Sequence record: NC_100331.1
Length of the DNA stretch: 64,000 nt
Strand: one strand, 5' to 3'
From: Escherichia phage vB_EcoS_HASG4
The notes under the pieces are model-generated. The model was not told where the DNA came from. It saw only the letters and a program-made list of their open reading frames with translations, and ran no database searches. Shown one piece after another: positions 7,640 through 36,702 of this stretch. The position numbers were made by a program, and so were the translations under genes. Each line of letters opens with the position of its first letter. Position 1 is the first letter of the stretch.

Positions 7640-8587
7640 TTACTTGTTACGCATATCCATAATCATTTGGCCATCATAACCAGTGCCAACCACAGTCTGC
7701 GGTACACCACCTTGATACTTCTGAGCACGGATCATTTCAACTTCCAGTTGCTTCCAGCGAATCATCTCAGGAGTAATGGTACGTTGCAATGCGGCGTTAG
7801 CTTCAGCTTCTTTCTTAGCTGAGTACAGTTTAGCATCTGCGTCACGTTCATTAGCAATAGCTTGGTTGTTGCGAGCTTCACGATCTGCTTCTGCTTGTTT
7901 AACTTTTTGCTGTGCTTCCTGTTCAACACGAGCCAATTCAGCTTTCGCAGCGTTAACTTGTTCTTCACGAACTTTGGTATTCTGTACCTGTTCCATGATT
8001 ACAGGCGGCAAAGTAATATCCTGAAGGAACACTTGCTTAACTGTGTAACCATAAGGGCGTGCATACTCTTCAACTTCCTGTTGAATTGCAGTTTGCAATT
8101 GAGCCTGAATTTTAGCATCAAACAAATCTTGTGCTTTAGGAACAGACTTACCGAACTCACGAATAGTGGATAACAGCTTCTCAGTTACGTACTTATCTAG
8201 AGCCTGATCCTGAGTACCTGCATTAATACGGTTGATCGGTGCCTTAGAACCATCAAACTGCAACATAACAGTCAGGTCAACAGTGGATTTAAACTTATCC
8301 TGGCTAGGAACCTGAAGTTTATCTAATTTTACAGCAATATCTTTTGTACTAAAAGTATCGAAAGATGCAAATGGATTTACAAGATGAAAACCAGGTAATA
8401 CAGGATTAGGGTCTACTTTACCCAGAAATGTTTGGGTTTTAACCGTACCATCAGAAACAATAGTATATGAATTAAAAGCTAGGATTAAACCTGCTAAACC
8501 AACTACAGCACCAATACCCCAACGTTTAATAGTGCGAATTACTTTTTGCTCAGAAGTCAGTTCTTTCATATTTTTAGTATTAAACAT
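7640..8587 (-). CDS. SPFH/band-7 (stomatin/prohibitin/HflKC-like) membrane protein
   Basis: N-terminal transmembrane helix (IGAVVGLAGLILAF), then a band-7-like core and an Ala/Glu/Gln-rich coiled-coil tail; RBS AAGGAAA before ATG 8587. Confidence 0.65.
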   Translation of the reverse strand: MFNTKNMKELTSEQKVIRTIKRWGIGAVVGLAGLILAFNSYTIVSDGTVKTQTFLGKVDPNPVLPGFHLVNPFASFDTFSTKDIAVKLDKLQVPSQDKFKSTVDLTVMLQFDGSKAPINRINAGTQDQALDKYVTEKLLSTIREFGKSVPKAQDLFDAKIQAQLQTAIQQEVEEYARPYGYTVKQVFLQDITLPPVIMEQVQNTKVREEQVNAAKAELARVEQEAQQKVKQAEADREARNNQAIANERDADAKLYSAKKEAEANAALQRTITPEMIRWKQLEVEMIRAQKYQGGVPQTVVGTGYDGQMIMDMRNK

Positions 8588-8621
8588 ATATTTCCTTTGT
8601 TTTAGTTACAGTTAATAAAAT

Positions 8622-8696
8622 TGGCCGAGGTGACAGGATTCGAACCTGCATAAAGGAATTTAGAAGACTCCTGCCTCTCCCTTAGACTACACCCCG
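8622..8696 (-). tRNA. tRNA-Arg (anticodon TCT, tentative)
   Basis: Acceptor CGGGGTG/CACCTCG, T-arm GCAGG-TTCGAAT-CCTGT, anticodon stem GGAGT/ATTCC with loop CTTCTAA, encoded CCA. Confidence 0.55.
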
Positions 8697-9198
8697 TTTA
8701 AGTATTTTTAAGAACTCTCGTAAAAACTCTTAAAAATACAGACGATACCGGGAGAGTCATAAGTCTCACTCATTAAGTATTTCAAGACAAAATACAGTAA
8801 CGTCTATTATTTTCCAGTTTAAGTCAAGGTGACTTAGTGGTTATGTCCTGCGGTATACTGAGGACTCGGTTAGGTTAGGGTCATGACTCCCCACTTTTTT
8901 GCTGCTACTCAACAGGAGTTATCGCGAATTACCTGTGCTATTGTGCACCATTAGTGGCATCTCTCATGCCAGCATTTCCCACTTTGTGGATAGTTTGAAA
9001 AACTACTCCGATATGGAGAAAGAACTTCACTATCCTAGAATACCTTCTAAAGTTCTTCTTTAGCCTGGACATAGTTAAATCGTAATAAAACTATTCAGCA
9101 GACTGGTTGGTTAGTCTGGAACCAACTACCGCGTGGTTTAGGCAGTGCGCAACTAACCTCGGAAGCTTTTACATTAAAAGCACCAGTTATCCAGTTCT

Positions 9199-9270
9199 TA
9201 CCGACCGTAGGATTCGAACCTACATCTTCCACCAGTTACGGCTTGATAATACCGTTTATACTAGATCGGC
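9199..9270 (-). tRNA. tRNA or tRNA-like (anticodon unresolved, no encoded CCA)
   Basis: Good T-arm GTAGG-TTCGAAT-CCTAC and acceptor GCCGATC/GGTCGGT; anticodon arm not foldable by eye. Confidence 0.4.
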
Positions 9271-9493
9271 AGTGTTACTACATAAGTGATTTCCACACCC
9301 CACTATCAATAAATTAGAGAAGAGTTTAGGGGAGAGGTTTCAGACGCCTCATTTTACACGTTCTAGCCACTAACCGGGATTGCCGCCCCCTGTGTACTAG
9401 TTTTACAACTAACCCACCGACTCTATTCAATGCGCTCCGGTTGGGATTCTGCACTCAGCGTAATCGGCTCGCTGTTCTCTAATTTATGAATAT

Positions 9494-26777: not shown

Positions 26778-27206
26778 ATGTTCAATAATGTATTCTCTAA
26801 AGAAGCTAACCCAATTTTGGTTAACTTTTGGCGTACTCTCCCGGCTAGCCTGTATAATGAGGCTATTAACTCCTTGAAAATATGGTGTGAGAATAACGAA
26901 ATCTCCTTTGCTTTTAAAGATGATATTGATGAGGCTCCCTGTATTGGTTTAATTGTTCAGGTAGAGGAGGGTCTTGAAGAAATTGTCGGCTGGAAAGAGT
27001 TAGATGAAATGGGCTTAGTTTTTGCGTTAAACTATAAGCTGTTTATGCCTGCTAAGCATCGCCTCGTTGTTAACTATAAAACTAGTGAATCTCCTGGTTT
27101 TCAGGTTAATGAACGTTACGGTTGGTCTTACTCACCGGAAGAAGTGAATGAGGGGATTCAGAAACTTCGACGTTTCGGGTATATGATCCCAGGTTTAACT
27201 GCTTAA
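26778..27206 (+). CDS. hypothetical protein, paralog A of a tandem pair
   Basis: Aligns by eye with 27216-27608 (W.R...SL....L..W......F.F.......PC.G......W.EL...GL..ALN..LF.P). Confidence 0.6.
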   Translation: MFNNVFSKEANPILVNFWRTLPASLYNEAINSLKIWCENNEISFAFKDDIDEAPCIGLIVQVEEGLEEIVGWKELDEMGLVFALNYKLFMPAKHRLVVNYKTSESPGFQVNERYGWSYSPEEVNEGIQKLRRFGYMIPGLTA

Positions 27207-27215
27207 GGAGGCAGA

Positions 27216-27608
27216 ATGGAACAAGTATATTGGCGTCAGATTGACCCTAGTTTGGTGAAACGTGCGGAGAAGCTGCTACAACGTTGGTTGGGGGTAAGAC
27301 AAGCCTCCTTCACTTTTCCGGAGCAGCAAATAGACGATCCTTGTGTTGGTGTTTTCCTATCAGGCTACGCTAGGGAATGGGAATTGGATTGGAATGAATT
27401 GTCTGCTATGGGTTTAATTGTTGCACTAAATTTCTCTTTGTTCCATCCCCGTGGTTTGGCCATATGTCGTGTGCCTGATGACGGTTGTTCGCCCCATCTT
27501 TTACAGATGGAAGATGATATTTGGGAGTACACTCCAGATATTCTCAAAGAAGCTAAAGAACAATTAAATCGTGTTGGAATCTATGTTCTGGGGCTAAATG
27601 ATGAATAA
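27216..27608 (+). CDS. hypothetical protein, paralog B of a tandem pair
   Basis: Shares conserved positions with 26778-27206; RBS AAGGAGG. Confidence 0.6.
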   Translation: MEQVYWRQIDPSLVKRAEKLLQRWLGVRQASFTFPEQQIDDPCVGVFLSGYAREWELDWNELSAMGLIVALNFSLFHPRGLAICRVPDDGCSPHLLQMEDDIWEYTPDILKEAKEQLNRVGIYVLGLNDE

Positions 27609-27795
27609 GGGATTTTGGAAAATAAAAGGTAAAATTTCTAAGTGGAATACTACAGGGAAAATTAGTAAGTCTCTAGAGATAGAGATAGCTAGAATGTTTA
27701 CTGATCCTGATTTTGATATAGGAAAACTAAGTAAAATAGATGCTAAAAAAGTAGATAAGTATATAGAAGAGATTAGAAGTATTTTAAGTGTCTAA
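27598..27795 (+). CDS. hypothetical Lys-rich protein (65 aa)
   Basis: ORF-track ORF, last gene before the terminator at 27803. Confidence 0.4.
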   Translation: MMNKGFWKIKGKISKWNTTGKISKSLEIEIARMFTDPDFDIGKLSKIDAKKVDKYIEEIRSILSV

Positions 27796-27802
27796 TACAC
27801 AT

Positions 27803-27832
27803 AACCGAGTCATTTTGGCTCGGTTTTATCCG
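27803..27832 (+). terminator. rho-independent terminator
   Basis: Hairpin AACCGAGTCATTTTGGCTCGGTT followed by a T-rich tract. Confidence 0.6.
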
Positions 27833-27871
27833 TACTCAAGACCAATGATAGCATTCTCTTTAAAAATTTAC

Positions 27872-27900
27872 TTGCACGATGCTCAAAATCTTGATATAAT
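27872..27900 (+). promoter_or_regulatory. promoter (TTGCAC-N17-TATAAT) driving the long leader and primase-helicase gene
   Basis: -35 at 27872-27877, -10 at 27895-27900. Confidence 0.55.
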
Positions 27901-28398
27901 AGTTATATTGAATTGAGAGACATTAGTAAAAATTGATTTTGCTAATTTTTCTTGTTTACAATCCGCGATACGGAACAGTTAGGCTGCCCCATTAAGGGTT
28001 GTTTTAACTGTTACGTGTTAGTTTTTAAACAAATAATTAATAGAATACTTAGCGATCTACACCCCGTAGGAACCCTGGTAAGGCCTCGAAGCAACCTAGT
28101 GTGAGGTGGTTGTGAAGTGAGACGGGAAGAGTGAAAAACTCTGAGAAGTGATGACGTAAGGTATACTGCATCTAGTATGAGCTAGTACATGAAGCATTAG
28201 GTGAGCAAATCTGGCTTAGCGGCCATCCTCAAGGATTTGTGCGGTATAGTGAAGCGGCAGTGTAGCGTGAAAGTGGAAGTTGCCACCCCACTTCAGTATT
28301 TGCAATTAATTTGTTGAGAAATTGACAGTAACAGTTGTTCTATTCTTTCTGAATAGTCCTAAAGAAAACTTATTTCATTTCCAACACAGGAGTATTGT

Positions 28399-31189
28399 TG
28401 TGTTTTCAATCCTACAAGGTCATGCAGGATTTCATCGCGATTTAGCCACAGGCAATTGGCGAGAAGTTAAAGCAGAAGACTATCTTTTTGCTAAAAGATT
28501 TTCCTCAAAGCATCCTGAAGGTAAACCAGCTTCAATGCCCTTCAAGTTTGATGTAATTGACGAAATTGATCCTCAAACCCTAGTAGAAATGCTTCCTCTT
28601 ATGAGACGTTTAACGTCTGACCCTCATATCGTTGCGGTACGAGGTCGATGTCTTGCACCTAAAAATAATGTGCGACGTAAGAAGGGCAACTTTAATGTAT
28701 CTAATCCAAGTCATATAATCGCAATGGATGTGGATGGTATTGTAGATACAGGAGGTTGTAACAAGTTTGATCTTGTTGGTATGGCTCGACATATTATTAG
28801 GATGTTAAATAGTATTAGTGAGGATATGTTTCCTCTTGATGCAGGGTTTATTGCTCATGCATCATCTTCGGCTGGCCTAAAACCAGGTATCCGAATGCAC
28901 TTAATACTAGAATCTAATGTTAAAGTTACACAGGGTCAGATCAAGTTCTTATTTACATCTATCAACGAAAGTAGTAGACAAAAGTATGGCTTTGATATTG
29001 CCGACTTAGCTTATTACTCCTCCGTACAGCTTCATTACTTTGCAGATCCTTTATTTATTGATGGTATAGTCGATCCGTTTAAAGCGGAGGGTGCTTCACG
29101 TCTGGTATTTGTTAAGGGTTCGAAGGTAAATTTGCCTAATAATCTAGTTGACTATGAAACAACTAGAGGTGAGTTTAAGGAGGAGTTCTATTCTTTACTC
29201 GACCAAATTAAAGGTAAAAAAGCTGCCTCTGATAAAGTAGAGGAAACTATCAGCGAACTAGAAGAAGCTGAGGATGGAGTGTATCTACGTATTATTCCAA
29301 AGCTATATCACCGAGCGCTAGAGGATGGAGTAGATTTTGGTTGGCTAGAAAAAGAAATCCGCCCAGCTTTATCAGAATATATTGCAACTAAAGATAATAG
29401 CCGTAATATTCAGGATTATTTCAATAACGGACGGAAGCAGGCATTAAAAGCCTTTGTGAATAACTCTAAGCGTGAGATCCCTGAAGTATTAAAAGGTATC
29501 CCCCTTAAAAAGCTAGAAACTAATTCACTAGAGACCGACAACTTCTTGAAATTAAATACTGTACCACCAGAAGGTTATATGACTTTTGTAAAAGCAAGTC
29601 TAGGTACAGGTAAAACTACGGCGGTTGTGCGTTGGTTAGATTCAGGAGTTATTAAGGGTAATTTCTTAGCAATTACCAATACTCGAGCACTGGTATCTTC
29701 AAATGCTAAGAAATTTAGTGCAGGACAATATGATAAGTCTGTAGATATGCTTAATTTTAAGCGTGGTGCTATTGACCGTATGTCCACAACTATTCACTCT
29801 TTGCATAAGTTCAAGAGTTTTATTGGTCAAATTGATGCAATCTTTATCGATGAATGTGATGCAGTAATGAATGACCTATTATTCGCCCCAGTTGTTAAGC
29901 AACGTCGTGAGTGTATTCAGGTTCTTCGTGATATTCTTGCAACTGCAAAAATCATTATACTATCAGATGGTGATATTAGTGCTGAAACAATTGAAGCATA
30001 TGGTTCTTTAATTGAGTTCGATAAACCAGTAGCATTTTACAATCATCACCGTAAAATGCTGTCAAAAGCTCATGCTTATGAGTTCCCTGATGAGTCCAGT
30101 ATTTGGGTTGCACTTCAGACTTCTCTAGAGATGGGTGAGAAATCTATTCTAGTATCTGATTGTGGCCCTGATGAGCTTAATGAGAAGGGTATGGCACTAC
30201 GTCGTAATACGGGTGCATTAGTTAAGGAAATCCATTCAAACTCTACCTCAGATGTGGATATTCGACGTATTCTGGATTACACAACTAATGAGTTAATTGA
30301 TCAACAAATTGATTGCTTATTATGTAGTCCATCCGTAACGAGTGGAGTTGACTTCAACTATTTTGATAACGTATTTGTTATTACTAGAACCAGTAATCAA
30401 GCGCCAAACATGCGTTTCCAAGCAATCAGGCGCGACCGTGGTGCTCAGAATATCTATTATTTTATTGATAAATCCACTAGTGGATTCTCCGCAGGTTCTG
30501 AACAGTATAACATTGATGAGGGTTGGCTGGAGTTAGCACAGCAATTATACGCACGTCGCAGGGAGCTGGAATCTAGGAACTATACTAGTACTTTACGTTA
30601 TTACTTGCTTGATCAGGGTGCAACTATTGATATTTTCAGCGAAAGCTGGGGAACTATTGAAGGTGCTGGTAAAGAGTACACAGAAGAGCGAATTAAAGCT
30701 ATTCTACATTCAACTCCGGATTATTGTGCTCCACGTCATGCGGATGCGTATGAAGCTAAGCTACTTCTTGTTCGCTATTATCATCTTGAGTCTATTAAAG
30801 ATGTAACAGTTGAGCATGTTGAACAATATATCAAGGATAAACCGAATGATCGAGCAGCATTCTTCCATAAAATGCACGCGATGTTCTGGGAAGATATTAA
30901 GAAGTGTTCAAATGTCACTATCAAACCTTTCATAGAAGCTCTGAAAGGTAAGAAGAAAGATTTCTTCCTTAAAACAGGTCAGAGTGCTAACCCAAAATAT
31001 GCGAGAATGTATCTTGGTATGATGGGTATTGGTAAGGATATGAACACTGAAAATATTGTAGACTGGTACAGAACCTATTGTAAAATCGAGTGTATGCCAA
31101 TTCCTTATAAGTTCATGACTGACGAGGAAAAACATATGCATGATGAAGCAATGTCAGAGCTAGGTGCTAGAAATGACAGTGAAGAATAA
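28399..31189 (+). CDS. replication primase/helicase-like NTPase (about 930 aa)
   Basis: Start placed at GTG 28399 (AGGAG 7 nt upstream); HIIAMDVDG acidic motif in N-terminal half; Walker A LGTGKTT and Walker B IFIDECD in C-terminal half. Confidence 0.7.
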
Positions 31190-35162: not shown

Positions 35163-35942
35163 ATGAAAATCGAAATTCCAACACAATGTCCCTCTTGTGG
35201 TTCTAAGCTAGATCTTGTCAACGGACAATTATTCTGTCGTAATAAGTCCAACTGTCCAGCGCAATCAAGCAAGTTAATTGAGAACTTCTGTTCAAAAATG
35301 AAGTTAAAGGGCTTTGGCCCAAAAACTATTGAGAAGCTGGAGCTGACGAAGATTTCAGAACTATTTTACCTAACCGAAGAAGATTTGGTTAGAGCCGTGG
35401 GTAGCAAGGTTGCCGCTAAGTTAATTAGCGAATTAAATACTAAAGTTCGCGGAGACATTGACTTTGGTTCAGTTCTCGGTTCTTTAGGAATCCCTCTAAT
35501 TGGAGAAGTTGCAGCAAAGAAACTATCCCAAAATTGCACTAGCTTCCATGATGTGAAGGCTGACGGCAAGGCTGGAGAAAATTACAAAGCCTGGCTAAAT
35601 TCCCCACAAGGCAAGGATGTTATTGAACTACCGTGGAAATTTTCAACTGGTGTTAAGGGCACTAAAGCTGACGTCATCATTACAGATGAATTAGTTGCCC
35701 AGCCAAATGGAATCGCGGTATGTATTACCGGATCTTTGCAAGATTTTGCAAATCGAACGGATGCAACAAACTATTTAGAAGGTCTAGGATATACGGTTAA
35801 GAAATCCGTTACCAAAGACGTCAAATACCTAATCTGTGAGGATGAATCGAAGCGTTCTTCCTCATCTTATAAGAAAGCCGAAACGAATGGGATAGAAATC
35901 CTGTCGATTAAAGAACTATTGGAGAAAAATAATAATGTCTAA
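35163..35942 (+). CDS. NAD-dependent DNA ligase, C-terminal fragment (Zn finger, HhH, BRCT-like)
   Basis: CPSCGSKLDLVNGQLFCRNKSNCPAQ Zn-finger followed by helix-hairpin-helix-like GIPLIGEVAAKKL and a C-terminal BRCT-like region. Confidence 0.7.
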   Translation: MKIEIPTQCPSCGSKLDLVNGQLFCRNKSNCPAQSSKLIENFCSKMKLKGFGPKTIEKLELTKISELFYLTEEDLVRAVGSKVAAKLISELNTKVRGDIDFGSVLGSLGIPLIGEVAAKKLSQNCTSFHDVKADGKAGENYKAWLNSPQGKDVIELPWKFSTGVKGTKADVIITDELVAQPNGIAVCITGSLQDFANRTDATNYLEGLGYTVKKSVTKDVKYLICEDESKRSSSSYKKAETNGIEILSIKELLEKNNNV

Positions 35943-36702
35943 ACTGAACTGGAACGTAGAAGGTGTAACCGAGTCTCTGAAAGCAAAAGCCACTGCTCTG
36001 GGTGTTTCTGTAATCTCTCAAGAACAAGTAGCTGCTATCGCTGCTGAACTGGCTGCTGAAACCGGCAAAGATGTTACTGCTCGCTCTGTTGGCTCTAAAC
36101 TGCGTAAAGAAGGTTTTGAAGTACAAAAAGCTAACGAAGTACAGAAATCTCCGTGGACTCCTGAGCAGGAAGCTGAACTGGTTGATTTCCTGAATGCTCA
36201 TGCTGGTCAGTATACCTATGCTGAAATCGCTGCTGCTGTAGCTGGTGGTCAGTTCGGTGCTAAACAGGTACAGGGTAAGATCCTGAGTCTGGAAATGACC
36301 GCTTCTGTTAAGCCAACCGAAAAAGCTGCTGCTGTTCGTTCCTTCACTCCGGATGAAGAAACTGATTTTGTTAATCAGGTTGTTGCTGGTGCTACTATTG
36401 AAGCTATCGCTGCTCACTTCGGTCGTAATATCAAGCAGATCCGTGGTAAAGCTCTGAGCCTGCTTCGTGAAGGTCGTATCGCTGCTATGCCGGTACAGGA
36501 AACCTCAAGTGCTAAAACTCGTGAAGATCTGTTAGAAGGTCTGGATCTGGTTAACATGACTGTTGCTGAGATCGCTGAGAAAACTGGTAAATCTGAGCGC
36601 GGTGTTAAATCTATGCTGTCTCGTCGTGGTCTGGTTGCTAAGGACTATGATGGTGCCGCTAAGCGTGCTAAACTGGATGCAAAAGCTGCGGCTGCTGAAT
36701 AA
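35935..36702 (+). CDS. abundant protein built of four tandem HTH-like repeats (255 aa)
   Basis: Four roughly 55-aa units each with ..IAA..G.....VxGK.LSL.R.G; strongly biased codon usage. Confidence 0.7.
   Translation: MSKLNWNVEGVTESLKAKATALGVSVISQEQVAAIAAELAAETGKDVTARSVGSKLRKEGFEVQKANEVQKSPWTPEQEAELVDFLNAHAGQYTYAEIAAAVAGGQFGAKQVQGKILSLEMTASVKPTEKAAAVRSFTPDEETDFVNQVVAGATIEAIAAHFGRNIKQIRGKALSLLREGRIAAMPVQETSSAKTREDLLEGLDLVNMTVAEIAEKTGKSERGVKSMLSRRGLVAKDYDGAAKRAKLDAKAAAAE

Follow-up and report, generated by a model that had tools for sequence, protein, structure and literature searches.

Organization of the D2 locus

The long non-coding gap in front of the D2 helicase gene was analyzed in a 64,000-nucleotide (nt) stretch of DNA from Escherichia phage vB_EcoS_HASG4 (NC_100331.1), referred to here as the window. 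The gap spans positions 27796–28399 and separates a gene for a 65-residue (aa) hypothetical protein from the gene for D2, which has 929 aa. Comparative sequence analysis shows that the greater part of the gap, from approximately 27907 to 28399, holds a large and conserved RNA on the + strand, with a predicted fold of approximately 440 structured nt and at least 12 helices. The region is 100% identical to that of Escherichia phage vB_EcoS_EASG3 (MK373799), a Tequintavirus and relative of T5, and matches to the gap are found in 533 phage records. The features that delimit the locus are as follows.

27803–27825, + strand: terminator hairpin ending the upstream gene cluster, an inverted repeat AACCGAGTCA/TGGCTCGGTT followed by TTTTAT
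27872–27900, + strand: early promoter, with the −35 element TTGCAC (27872–27877) and the extended −10 element TGaTATAAT (27892–27900)
28400–31189, + strand: D2 gene, 929 aa, a UL9-like/CyRepA1-like helicase of superfamily 2 (SF2), annotated 'replication origin binding protein'

The terminator, with which the gap opens on its left side, is annotated in the records of both EASG3 and T5. The promoter, which a first-pass annotation made from the sequence had placed at these same positions, is the counterpart of the T5 'putative early promoter T5P32' (AY587007), which maps to 27856–27925 of the window, and its TTGC...TATAAT elements are kept in all Markadamsvirinae-like lineages. Its position places the start of transcription at approximately 27907, giving a leader of approximately 493 nt. 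The leader thus runs along the coding strand from the presumed transcription start to the start codon of D2, and neither a gene nor a terminator interrupts it; a search across 27300–28800 found no terminator-like site. The start of the gene, previously set at 28399, is corrected to a GTG codon at 28400.

The absence of an open reading frame (ORF) with a ribosome-binding site, also proposed earlier, is confirmed by the comparison. The ORFs of the gap encode 20–60 aa, have TTG or GTG as start codons and no Shine-Dalgarno sequence, and shift in frame and position between lineages; the 50-aa TTG ORF of the window is shortened to 21 aa in T5. No small ORF or leader peptide with a ribosome-binding site is conserved in the same frame and position across the lineages compared. 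In the database records of T5-like phages, the gap is either left blank or given dubious small ORFs.

Predicted fold of the leader RNA

The folding of the leader surpasses that of its dinucleotide shuffles (z = −3.0). When RNAalifold was applied separately to leaders of the EASG3 type and of the T5 type, the two alleles of Tequintavirus, the same architecture was obtained, though their cores are only approximately 50% identical; a run on 12 mixed sequences recovers P1, P5 with P6, P9/P9a, the outer part of P3, and P11 independently. Helices were evaluated on alignment A3, composed of 34 distinct leaders, and on alignment A4, which covers only the core of 14 EASG3-like sequences. The predicted elements, all on the + strand, are listed below in 5′ to 3′ order.

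27915–27953: P1, 5′-proximal hairpin, GAGAGA-CAUUAGUAAAA ... UUUUGCUAAU-UUUUCUU, found by minimum free energy (MFE) folding and RNAalifold
27958–28002: P2 domain, with the most conserved block, AUACGGAACAGUUAGGCUG (27969–27986), and a hairpin CAGU/GCUG (27976–27979 with 27983–27986)
28005–28040 with 28304–28337: P3, closing helix, an interrupted duplex around the core
28057–28062 with 28260–28265: P5, CUACAC with GUGUAG, found independently by RNAalifold, 95–96% paired
28063–28067 with 28122–28126: P6, CCCGU with ACGGG, long-range, stacked with P5
within 28085–28142: P6b and P6c hairpin (GCAACC/GGUUGU), helices of A4
28128–28142: P7 hairpin, AGAGU-GAAAA-ACUCU, helix of A4
28162–28248: Domain II, a three-way junction of P8, P8a, and P9
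28162–28168 with 28242–28248: P8, UAUACUG/CGGUAUA, with compensatory changes
28169–28203: P8a hairpin, part of Domain II
28205–28212 with 28233–28240: P9, GCAAAUCU/GGAUUUGU, 98% paired, with eight of its eight pairs changed on both sides
28213–28224: invariant hairpin GGCUUAGCGGCC inside P9, kept between lineages
28271–28293: P10 hairpin, AAGUGG-(AAGUUGCCACC)-CCACUU, with a U-A pair replaced by G-C in L037 and L078
28340–28356: P11 hairpin, CUAUUC-UUUCU-GAAUAG, 92% paired
28383–28404: P12, translation-initiation hairpin, AACAC (28383–28387) with GUGUU (28400–28404), 98% paired

Local hairpins had been noted in this region, and P1, P7, P10, P11, and P12 are hairpins of the predicted fold. In P1, 89% of the A3 cells are paired, and the hairpin is built from a different sequence in the lineage of Klebsiella phages, in Pectobacterium phage My1, and in L057, an unassigned phage from IMG/VR. 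The P2 block consists of invariant columns in A3, and L084, a metagenomic relative, carries CGG/CCG in place of CAG/CUG. A second sigma-70-like site (27933–27962; TTGATT, an 18-nt spacer, TACAAT) lies within the 3′ arm of P1 and is conserved in Tequintavirus leaders only; transcription from it would begin just 5′ of the conserved P2 block.

P3 joins the sequence that precedes P5 to the sequence that follows P10, and constitutes an interrupted duplex of 30–50 bp (−30 to −41 kcal/mol) in eight of eight representative leaders from six lineages, in each case from unrelated sequences. Its outer nine pairs are 100% paired in A3, with four of the nine changed on both sides. The helix encloses a multi-helix core of approximately 265 nt (P5–P10), and it is longer than the intramolecular duplex of approximately 20 bp expected of a precursor processed by ribonuclease III (RNase III).

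Within the core, P5 occurs as CUACAC/GUGUAG, CUGCGU/GCGCAG, CUGUGU/GCACAG, CUGUAU/GUACAG, and CUAGAA/UUCUAG, with its arms always approximately 205 nt apart. Compensatory changes are found inside the EASG3 type itself, where P6 varies from CCCGU/ACGGG to CCCAU/AUGGG and P7 from AGAG/CUCU to GGAG/CUCC. In the same type, P8 runs through C-G, U-G, and U-A, and T5-type leaders carry GUACAG/CUGUAU or, in another variant, GUCCAG/CUGGAU. Inside P9, CUUAGCGG, the core of GGCUUAGCGGCC, is invariant across all Markadamsvirinae-like leaders. The position of P10 holds a hairpin in T5 as well (AUAUGA/UCAUAU) and in other lineages. P11 occurs elsewhere as CUUUCC/GGAAAG, CUAUC/GAUAG, and ACUAU/AUAGU; it has no U-run and is therefore not regarded as a terminator.

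P12 encloses the start codon of D2 in its stem, with the Shine-Dalgarno sequence AGGAG (28388–28392) at the 5′ side of the loop. The base that opposes the first base of the start codon changes together with it: GUG faces CAC, AUG faces CAU in the Klebsiella lineage, and UUG faces CAA in L084. As a separate observation, a CUGAGAAGUG block is conserved in the leaders of the EASG3 type, L057, and My1, with the variants CAAGAAGUG in the Klebsiella lineage and GGAGAAGUG in L084.

Covariation and strand specificity

The statistical support for the fold was assessed against controls in which the 3′ partner of each helix was slid by one to three columns, and against 500 shuffles. In A3, 87.3% of 3389 cells are paired, compared to 36–47% in the slid controls. 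Changes on both sides are found in 52 of the 102 pairs, compared to 19–31 in the slid controls and 28.1 ± 2.8 in the shuffles, none of which (0/500) reaches the observed number. The covariation score is 0.258, and is at most 0.099 in the controls. On A4, 91.6% of the cells are paired, compared to at most 44%, and changes on both sides are found in 33 of the 59 pairs, compared to 9–14. Misalignment lowers rather than raises these counts, as MAFFT misregisters some helices in the rows of Klebsiella, L057, and My1. In MAFFT alignments of Domain II and of the CUUAGCGG hairpin, helix arms likewise fall out of register where junction lengths differ; the full core comprises 243 columns.

The first-pass annotation had offered a structured leader or non-coding RNA as one of its options and a covariance analysis across T5-like genomes as a check. 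The outcome supports that option: compensatory substitutions occur in many helices across six lineages, pairing is biased to the + strand, no small ORF is conserved, and the structure is conserved though the repeats discussed below are not. For all 12 leaders tested, the MFE of the + strand lies 16–44 kcal/mol below that of the − strand, with approximately twice as many G-U pairs. The supported structure contains 461 G-U cells versus 93 A-C cells, such that 13% of the paired cells are G-U and G-U is the commonest type in 13 pairs. A DNA cruciform was considered and dropped, as the G-U asymmetry speaks against it.

The same strand-specific pairing would also form in DNA, for instance in the + strand of an opened duplex, where the structure could act as a priming or helicase-loading signal like the single-strand origins of plasmids. 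The conserved loop TAGCGG resembles TAGCGT, the CS-6 loop element of ssoA-type origins, although the likeness extends to five of six bases only. G-U cells would correspond to weak G-T pairs in DNA, and both the strong promoter and the start-codon hairpin favour RNA, so that we consider a single-stranded DNA signal very improbable. RNA is the economical reading because of that promoter and that hairpin.

Alleles and distribution

The two Tequintavirus alleles share flanks (27801–28019 and 28327–28399) that are approximately 90–97% identical. The central 300 nt or so (28020–28326) are barely alignable between the EASG3 type and the T5 type, yet are equal in length. T5-type leaders retain P3, P5, P8, P9, and P10 and differ in the half that contains P6 and P7; the 75 nt that separate the core from the start codon are approximately 90–98% identical in most T5-type phages. 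Both alleles occur among otherwise near-identical genomes, and they co-segregate with the haplotype of D2 residues 1–600 (codons 28400–30200). These residues show 77–99% identity per 100-aa window in T5-type phages, and residues 600–929 show 95–100% in both allele groups. Overall, D2 is 65–93% identical across lineages, with approximately 93% for the T5-type protein.

Outside Tequintavirus, GGCUUAGCGGCC is also kept in the Klebsiella phages, My1, L057, and L084. In Providencia and Proteus phages only its CUUAGCGG core is kept, and hairpins with CUUAGCGG recur in Providencia, in Proteus, and, twice, in Aeromonas phage TS3. Vibrio leaders have their own compensatory changes and a AGUGAUCU motif, followed by a long-range helix. 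In IMG/VR, each T5-like genome has a single copy of a conserved 19-mer of the leader, which invariably precedes D2; two further matches in IMG/VR are due to chance and fall in coding sequence of high-GC contigs. In bacterial genomes (596 Gb), the 83 matches to the 19-mer correspond to the chance level, and none has TTAGCGG downstream. The metagenome scan contributed little added diversity.

In all Demerecviridae examined, the D2 homologue is directly preceded by a long non-coding gap in the same orientation, and the genes farther upstream vary. The gaps in the more distant genera are the following.

Providencia PR1: approximately 610 nt
Proteus Stubb: approximately 760 nt
Vibrio VPG01 and Skimmer: 712 nt
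Vibrio D51 and D145: approximately 600–700 nt, filled with doubtful ORFs of 30–55 aa
Aeromonas TS3: 1590 nt

An nhmmer profile of the 34 leaders detects nothing significant in the leaders of Providencia, Proteus, Vibrio, and Aeromonas. With no profile match and unremarkable z-scores for folding in those leaders, homology outside the Markadamsvirinae-like group is unproven, and a family-wide homology of the RNA across the Demerecviridae is a possibility.

The gaps of Vibrio D51, Vibrio D145, and Aeromonas TS3 end in a hairpin with a U-run approximately 80 nt before the D2 start. These terminator-like ends suggest that the RNA of those phages has a gene of its own and is not a leader, and they bear on a second interpretation, in which a stable non-coding RNA acts in trans as a cofactor or scaffold of D2, with the core excised at P3 in Tequintavirus and transcribed on its own in other genera. 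Its strict position immediately 5′ of D2 throughout the family, a flanking helix of 30–50 bp like the processing stalks of ribosomal RNA (rRNA), a size and complexity above those of known operators, and the co-segregation of the core alleles with the haplotype of D2 residues 1–600 would all be consistent with such an RNA. Co-segregation could, however, be plain linkage and represent a single evolutionary event, and no terminator separates the RNA from D2 in Tequintavirus. A trans-acting RNA is considered a minor possibility.

In D145 (L073, approximately 2400–2440) and TS3 (L074, approximately 2210–2250), the U-run overlaps a TTGCAC −35-like element, and this terminator–promoter junction is similar to the AAAAATTTACTTGCA context in which the early promoters of T5 lie. 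D51 (L072, approximately 2250–2290) has the hairpin and U-run, but the corresponding sequence is TTGCGT and there is no clear −10 element. For the D2 homologue of D51 (L072, 2501–2636), the start appears to have been annotated too far downstream; with an ATG located 135 nt upstream, the protein would begin MFVILS..., as in D145. The ORFs of 30–55 aa annotated at 1800–2500 in L072 and L073, some of them on the opposite strand, look spurious.

Two rearrangements were found in individual leaders. A near-identical insertion of approximately 97 nt lies between P1 and P2 in L041, L055, and L064 (leader positions 47–143, corresponding to approximately 27953 in the window), in both allele types. It is flanked by a TTTTTCTT direct repeat, contains hairpins of its own, has no other copy in this window, and may be a small mobile insert. 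In L063 (leader positions 1–125), the promoter and the P1 hairpin are tandemly duplicated upstream of a normal leader.

A second copy of GCTTAGCGG is located on the − strand at 36656–36664, near the 3′ end of a + strand ORF (35935–36702). The + strand sequence at these positions is CCGCTAAGC, which is fully complementary, over 9 nt, to the conserved GCUUAGCGG loop. CCGCTAAGC is also found approximately 7–8 kb downstream of the leader in L088, L096, L097, and L120, with a chance expectation of 0.3 per window. The complementarity is probably a coincidence, and could represent an RNA–RNA contact.

GTGARR hexamers and base composition

The region had been described as carrying many GTGA(A/G)G-type repeats, and the enrichment is real. 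GTGA[AG][AG] occurs six times in the leader, whereas the window averages 0.46 per 499 nt (approximately 13-fold enrichment); six hexamers are reached in only seven of 1271 sliding windows, all of which lie over the leader, and in none of 2000 mononucleotide shuffles. The repeats are, however, confined to part of the region. Their starts (28101, 28112, 28117, 28131, 28249, and 28267) fall within 28101–28272, with four of the six in the P6b/P6c/P6/P7 stretch (28085–28142), and they are specific to the EASG3-type allele, which has five or six copies, as against one in the T5 type and zero to two in other lineages. The region had also been described as GC- and purine-richer than its surroundings. 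The GC content of the region as a whole, 0.391, equals that of the window (0.391), and only the core (28095–28290) differs, with a GC content of 0.48 compared to 0.39 and a purine content of 0.61 compared to 0.50.

A further suggestion had been that this is a replication origin with iterons next to its initiator, that is, a double-stranded DNA origin whose GTGARG repeats would be bound by D2. The 13-fold enrichment next to a gene annotated 'origin binding protein' is what favours it. The hexamers are, however, only 6 nt long and irregularly spaced (11, 5, 14, 118, and 18 nt). The leader has no iteron-like array of at least three direct repeats of approximately 17–22 bp with regular spacing, its direct repeats of 10–17 nt being present in two copies only, and no DnaA boxes. 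The variation of the sequence obeys the rules of base pairing rather than the conservation of repeats, and the hexamers are mostly absent from T5-type phages and elsewhere although D2 itself is 65–93% identical. A lack of repeat conservation in related phages had been named beforehand as a refuting outcome, and the iteron reading fails on it. The hexamers are not considered iterons because the cluster is limited to 28101–28272 and to one lineage, and an iteron origin is hardly credible. The best reading of the GTGARG motifs is that they represent purine-rich loop and junction segments of one RNA allele, and not protein-binding DNA repeats.

The D2 protein and a possible link to replication

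D2 of T5 has been characterized as a bipolar SF2 helicase related to UL9 of herpesviruses (PMC3632103). Its annotations vary among records, from 'replication origin binding protein' to 'DEAD/DEAH helicase' and 'DNA primase C'. Pfam detects Herpes_ori_bp alone (residues 394–533), and NCBIfam the core of a CyRepA1-like plasmid replication helicase alone (E 6e-35, under the family cut-off). A PDB search with the N-terminal 390 aa gave a single weak match, to a ribonuclease (E 0.025), and nothing primase-like. The first-pass annotation had called the gene a primase-helicase. The helicase part of the label stands; the primase part finds no support in the Pfam, NCBIfam, and PDB searches and is regarded as unverified because domain searches gave little outside the helicase core.

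The proximity of an initiator-type helicase raises the possibility of a transcript-dependent origin, in which the RNA from the early promoter would serve as an R-loop or as a leading-strand primer and its fold would govern hybrid formation, as for ColE1 RNA II and T4 oriF/oriG. A strong promoter reads into the leader, the UL9-like/CyRepA1-like character of the downstream gene product fits (PMC3632103), and the RNA strand of the core is rich in G, with a GC skew of approximately +0.34 and AT-rich stretches on either side. The locus lies at approximately 49% of the T5 genome, and T5 replication is reported to begin at multiple internal origins (Bourguignon 1976, as cited in PMC3632103). Against a primer role, the selection that maintains pairing within the RNA over its full length would compete with an RNA–DNA hybrid, the G clusters are few and modest, and the fold stops at the ribosome-binding site of D2, not at an unwinding element. 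A transcript-primed origin is considered improbable. A broader proposal has the RNA work specifically with the D2 initiator helicase when T5 replication begins, whether as the transcript of the origin, in the form of a primer or an R-loop, or as a stable cofactor that is cut out of the leader; this is speculative and also rather unlikely.

Comparison with known RNAs

The Rfam 15 covariance models, among them those of riboswitches, T-box, group I/II introns, GOLLD, ROOL, HEARO, OLE, 6S, tmRNA, and RNase P, gave no family at the gathering threshold across 27000–29000. The only match, in E-value mode, was to sR17 (17.4 bits versus 36, E 0.46), an archaeal C/D-box small RNA model, at 28118–28182, and is due to the motifs CUGA and GUGAUGA. 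At the loci of nine other lineages, sub-threshold chance matches only were obtained, none in the leader core, and ARAGORN finds no tRNA or tmRNA in the leader. A C/D-box or k-turn RNA was rejected, as its sole match is sub-threshold; a k-turn-like motif is conceivable but unsupported. A CsrA site in the conserved block was discarded on the loss of its GGA in the Klebsiella lineage and L084, and a GATC/Dam site at the base of P5 on its loss in L057 and My1. An attenuator or riboswitch of the terminator type was also rejected, given that no intrinsic terminator lies between the domain and the ORF in 27300–28800 and that P11 lacks a U-run. Searches of the accessible literature revealed no description of the leader RNA, no T5 transcriptome across it, and no sequence-level map of the T5 origin; the RNA may be present, unnamed, in large candidate lists such as PMC10690425.

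The leader is a new class within a known kind, the large structured non-coding or leader RNAs. It shares with phage operators and processed leaders (the T4 gene 32 pseudoknot, T4 gene 43, RegA, the lambda N leader, and the RNase III sites of T7) a structure in a replication-related leader, a ribosome-binding site or start codon in a hairpin, and a long duplex that is potentially cut by RNase III. Those elements measure tens to approximately 100 nt, whereas the leader has approximately 440 structured nt in at least 12 predicted helices. With GOLLD, ROOL, OLE, and the HEARO/IscB omega RNA it has in common a length of several hundred nt, many covarying helices, and occurrence in phages, and, with HEARO, a position directly 5′ of one particular gene for a nucleic-acid enzyme. 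The leader matches none of their covariance models, even in permissive mode. Unlike these RNAs, it is confined to T5-like phages, is presumably co-transcribed with the downstream gene, and shows no sign of independent termination in Tequintavirus. Like ColE1 RNA II, T4 oriF/oriG, and the primary origin of T7, it is a promoter-driven, folded RNA of approximately 500 nt beside replication genes, with a purine- and G-rich RNA strand; in contrast to them, its fold abuts a ribosome-binding site. Finally, as in rRNA precursor stalks, the flanks pair into a helix of at least 30 bp, long enough for RNase III. The RNA enclosed by P3 is, by contrast, approximately 265 nt long, and cleavage in P3 is a prediction.

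Proposed control of D2 expression

The interpretation that we favour is control of D2 in cis, to which we assign a probability of roughly 45%. The leader would be transcribed from the strong early promoter as the 5′ part of the D2 mRNA, and the start-codon hairpin P12 would limit the initiation of D2 translation. E. coli RNase III cuts double-stranded RNA of at least about 20 bp, for instance in rRNA precursor stalks and T7 early mRNAs. Because of this length preference and its 30–50 bp, P3 is a likely processing site for the host enzyme. Cleavage in P3 would detach the core RNA and leave a shortened D2 mRNA with its start near P11, remodelling the 5′ end of the message and setting its stability and translation.

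Several points weigh against this interpretation or against the leader RNA on which it builds. No terminator or obvious alternative pairing joins the large domain to the ribosome-binding site, so no switch mechanism is visible, and a 440-nt fold is far larger than known phage translational operators, which hints at a function beyond the control of D2. The terminator-like gap ends of D51, D145, and TS3 described above also count against a leader. As for the statistics, the alignment contains approximately seven effective lineages only, and the percentages of paired cells are inflated because the tested structure was partly derived from the window sequence. In some lineages, moreover, the z-scores for folding do not stand out (Klebsiella −1.2, L084 −0.5, Vibrio −0.9 to +1.5).

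Other features of the window

Some features elsewhere in the window deserve mention. A cluster of 14 tRNA genes occupies 173–9271 on the − strand and includes a predicted tRNA-Ser with the unusual anticodon ACT (9198–9271). Upstream of the gap, the gene at 27216–27608 matches Pfam DUF7415 (E 4e-31), and the adjacent gene at 26778–27206, of similar size, may be its paralogue. The T5 annotation of their counterparts records similarity to ORFs of Aeromonas phage Aeh1 only.

Implications for T5-like phages

Hundreds of sequenced therapeutic and environmental isolates are related to T5, a classical model phage. A covarying leader RNA of 440 nt ranks with the larger structured RNAs of phages, lies outside Rfam, and adjoins the gene to which the start of T5 replication is ascribed. 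The deep divergence of its two alleles, present in near-identical genomes, constitutes a natural experiment in the evolution of RNA structure. If the RNA controls or cooperates with D2, it would provide a direct handle on the timing or start of T5 replication, and genome annotation would be corrected family-wide. If it partners D2 in replication itself, it would mark the long-unmapped origin of T5 and define a new RNA-dependent start of phage replication.

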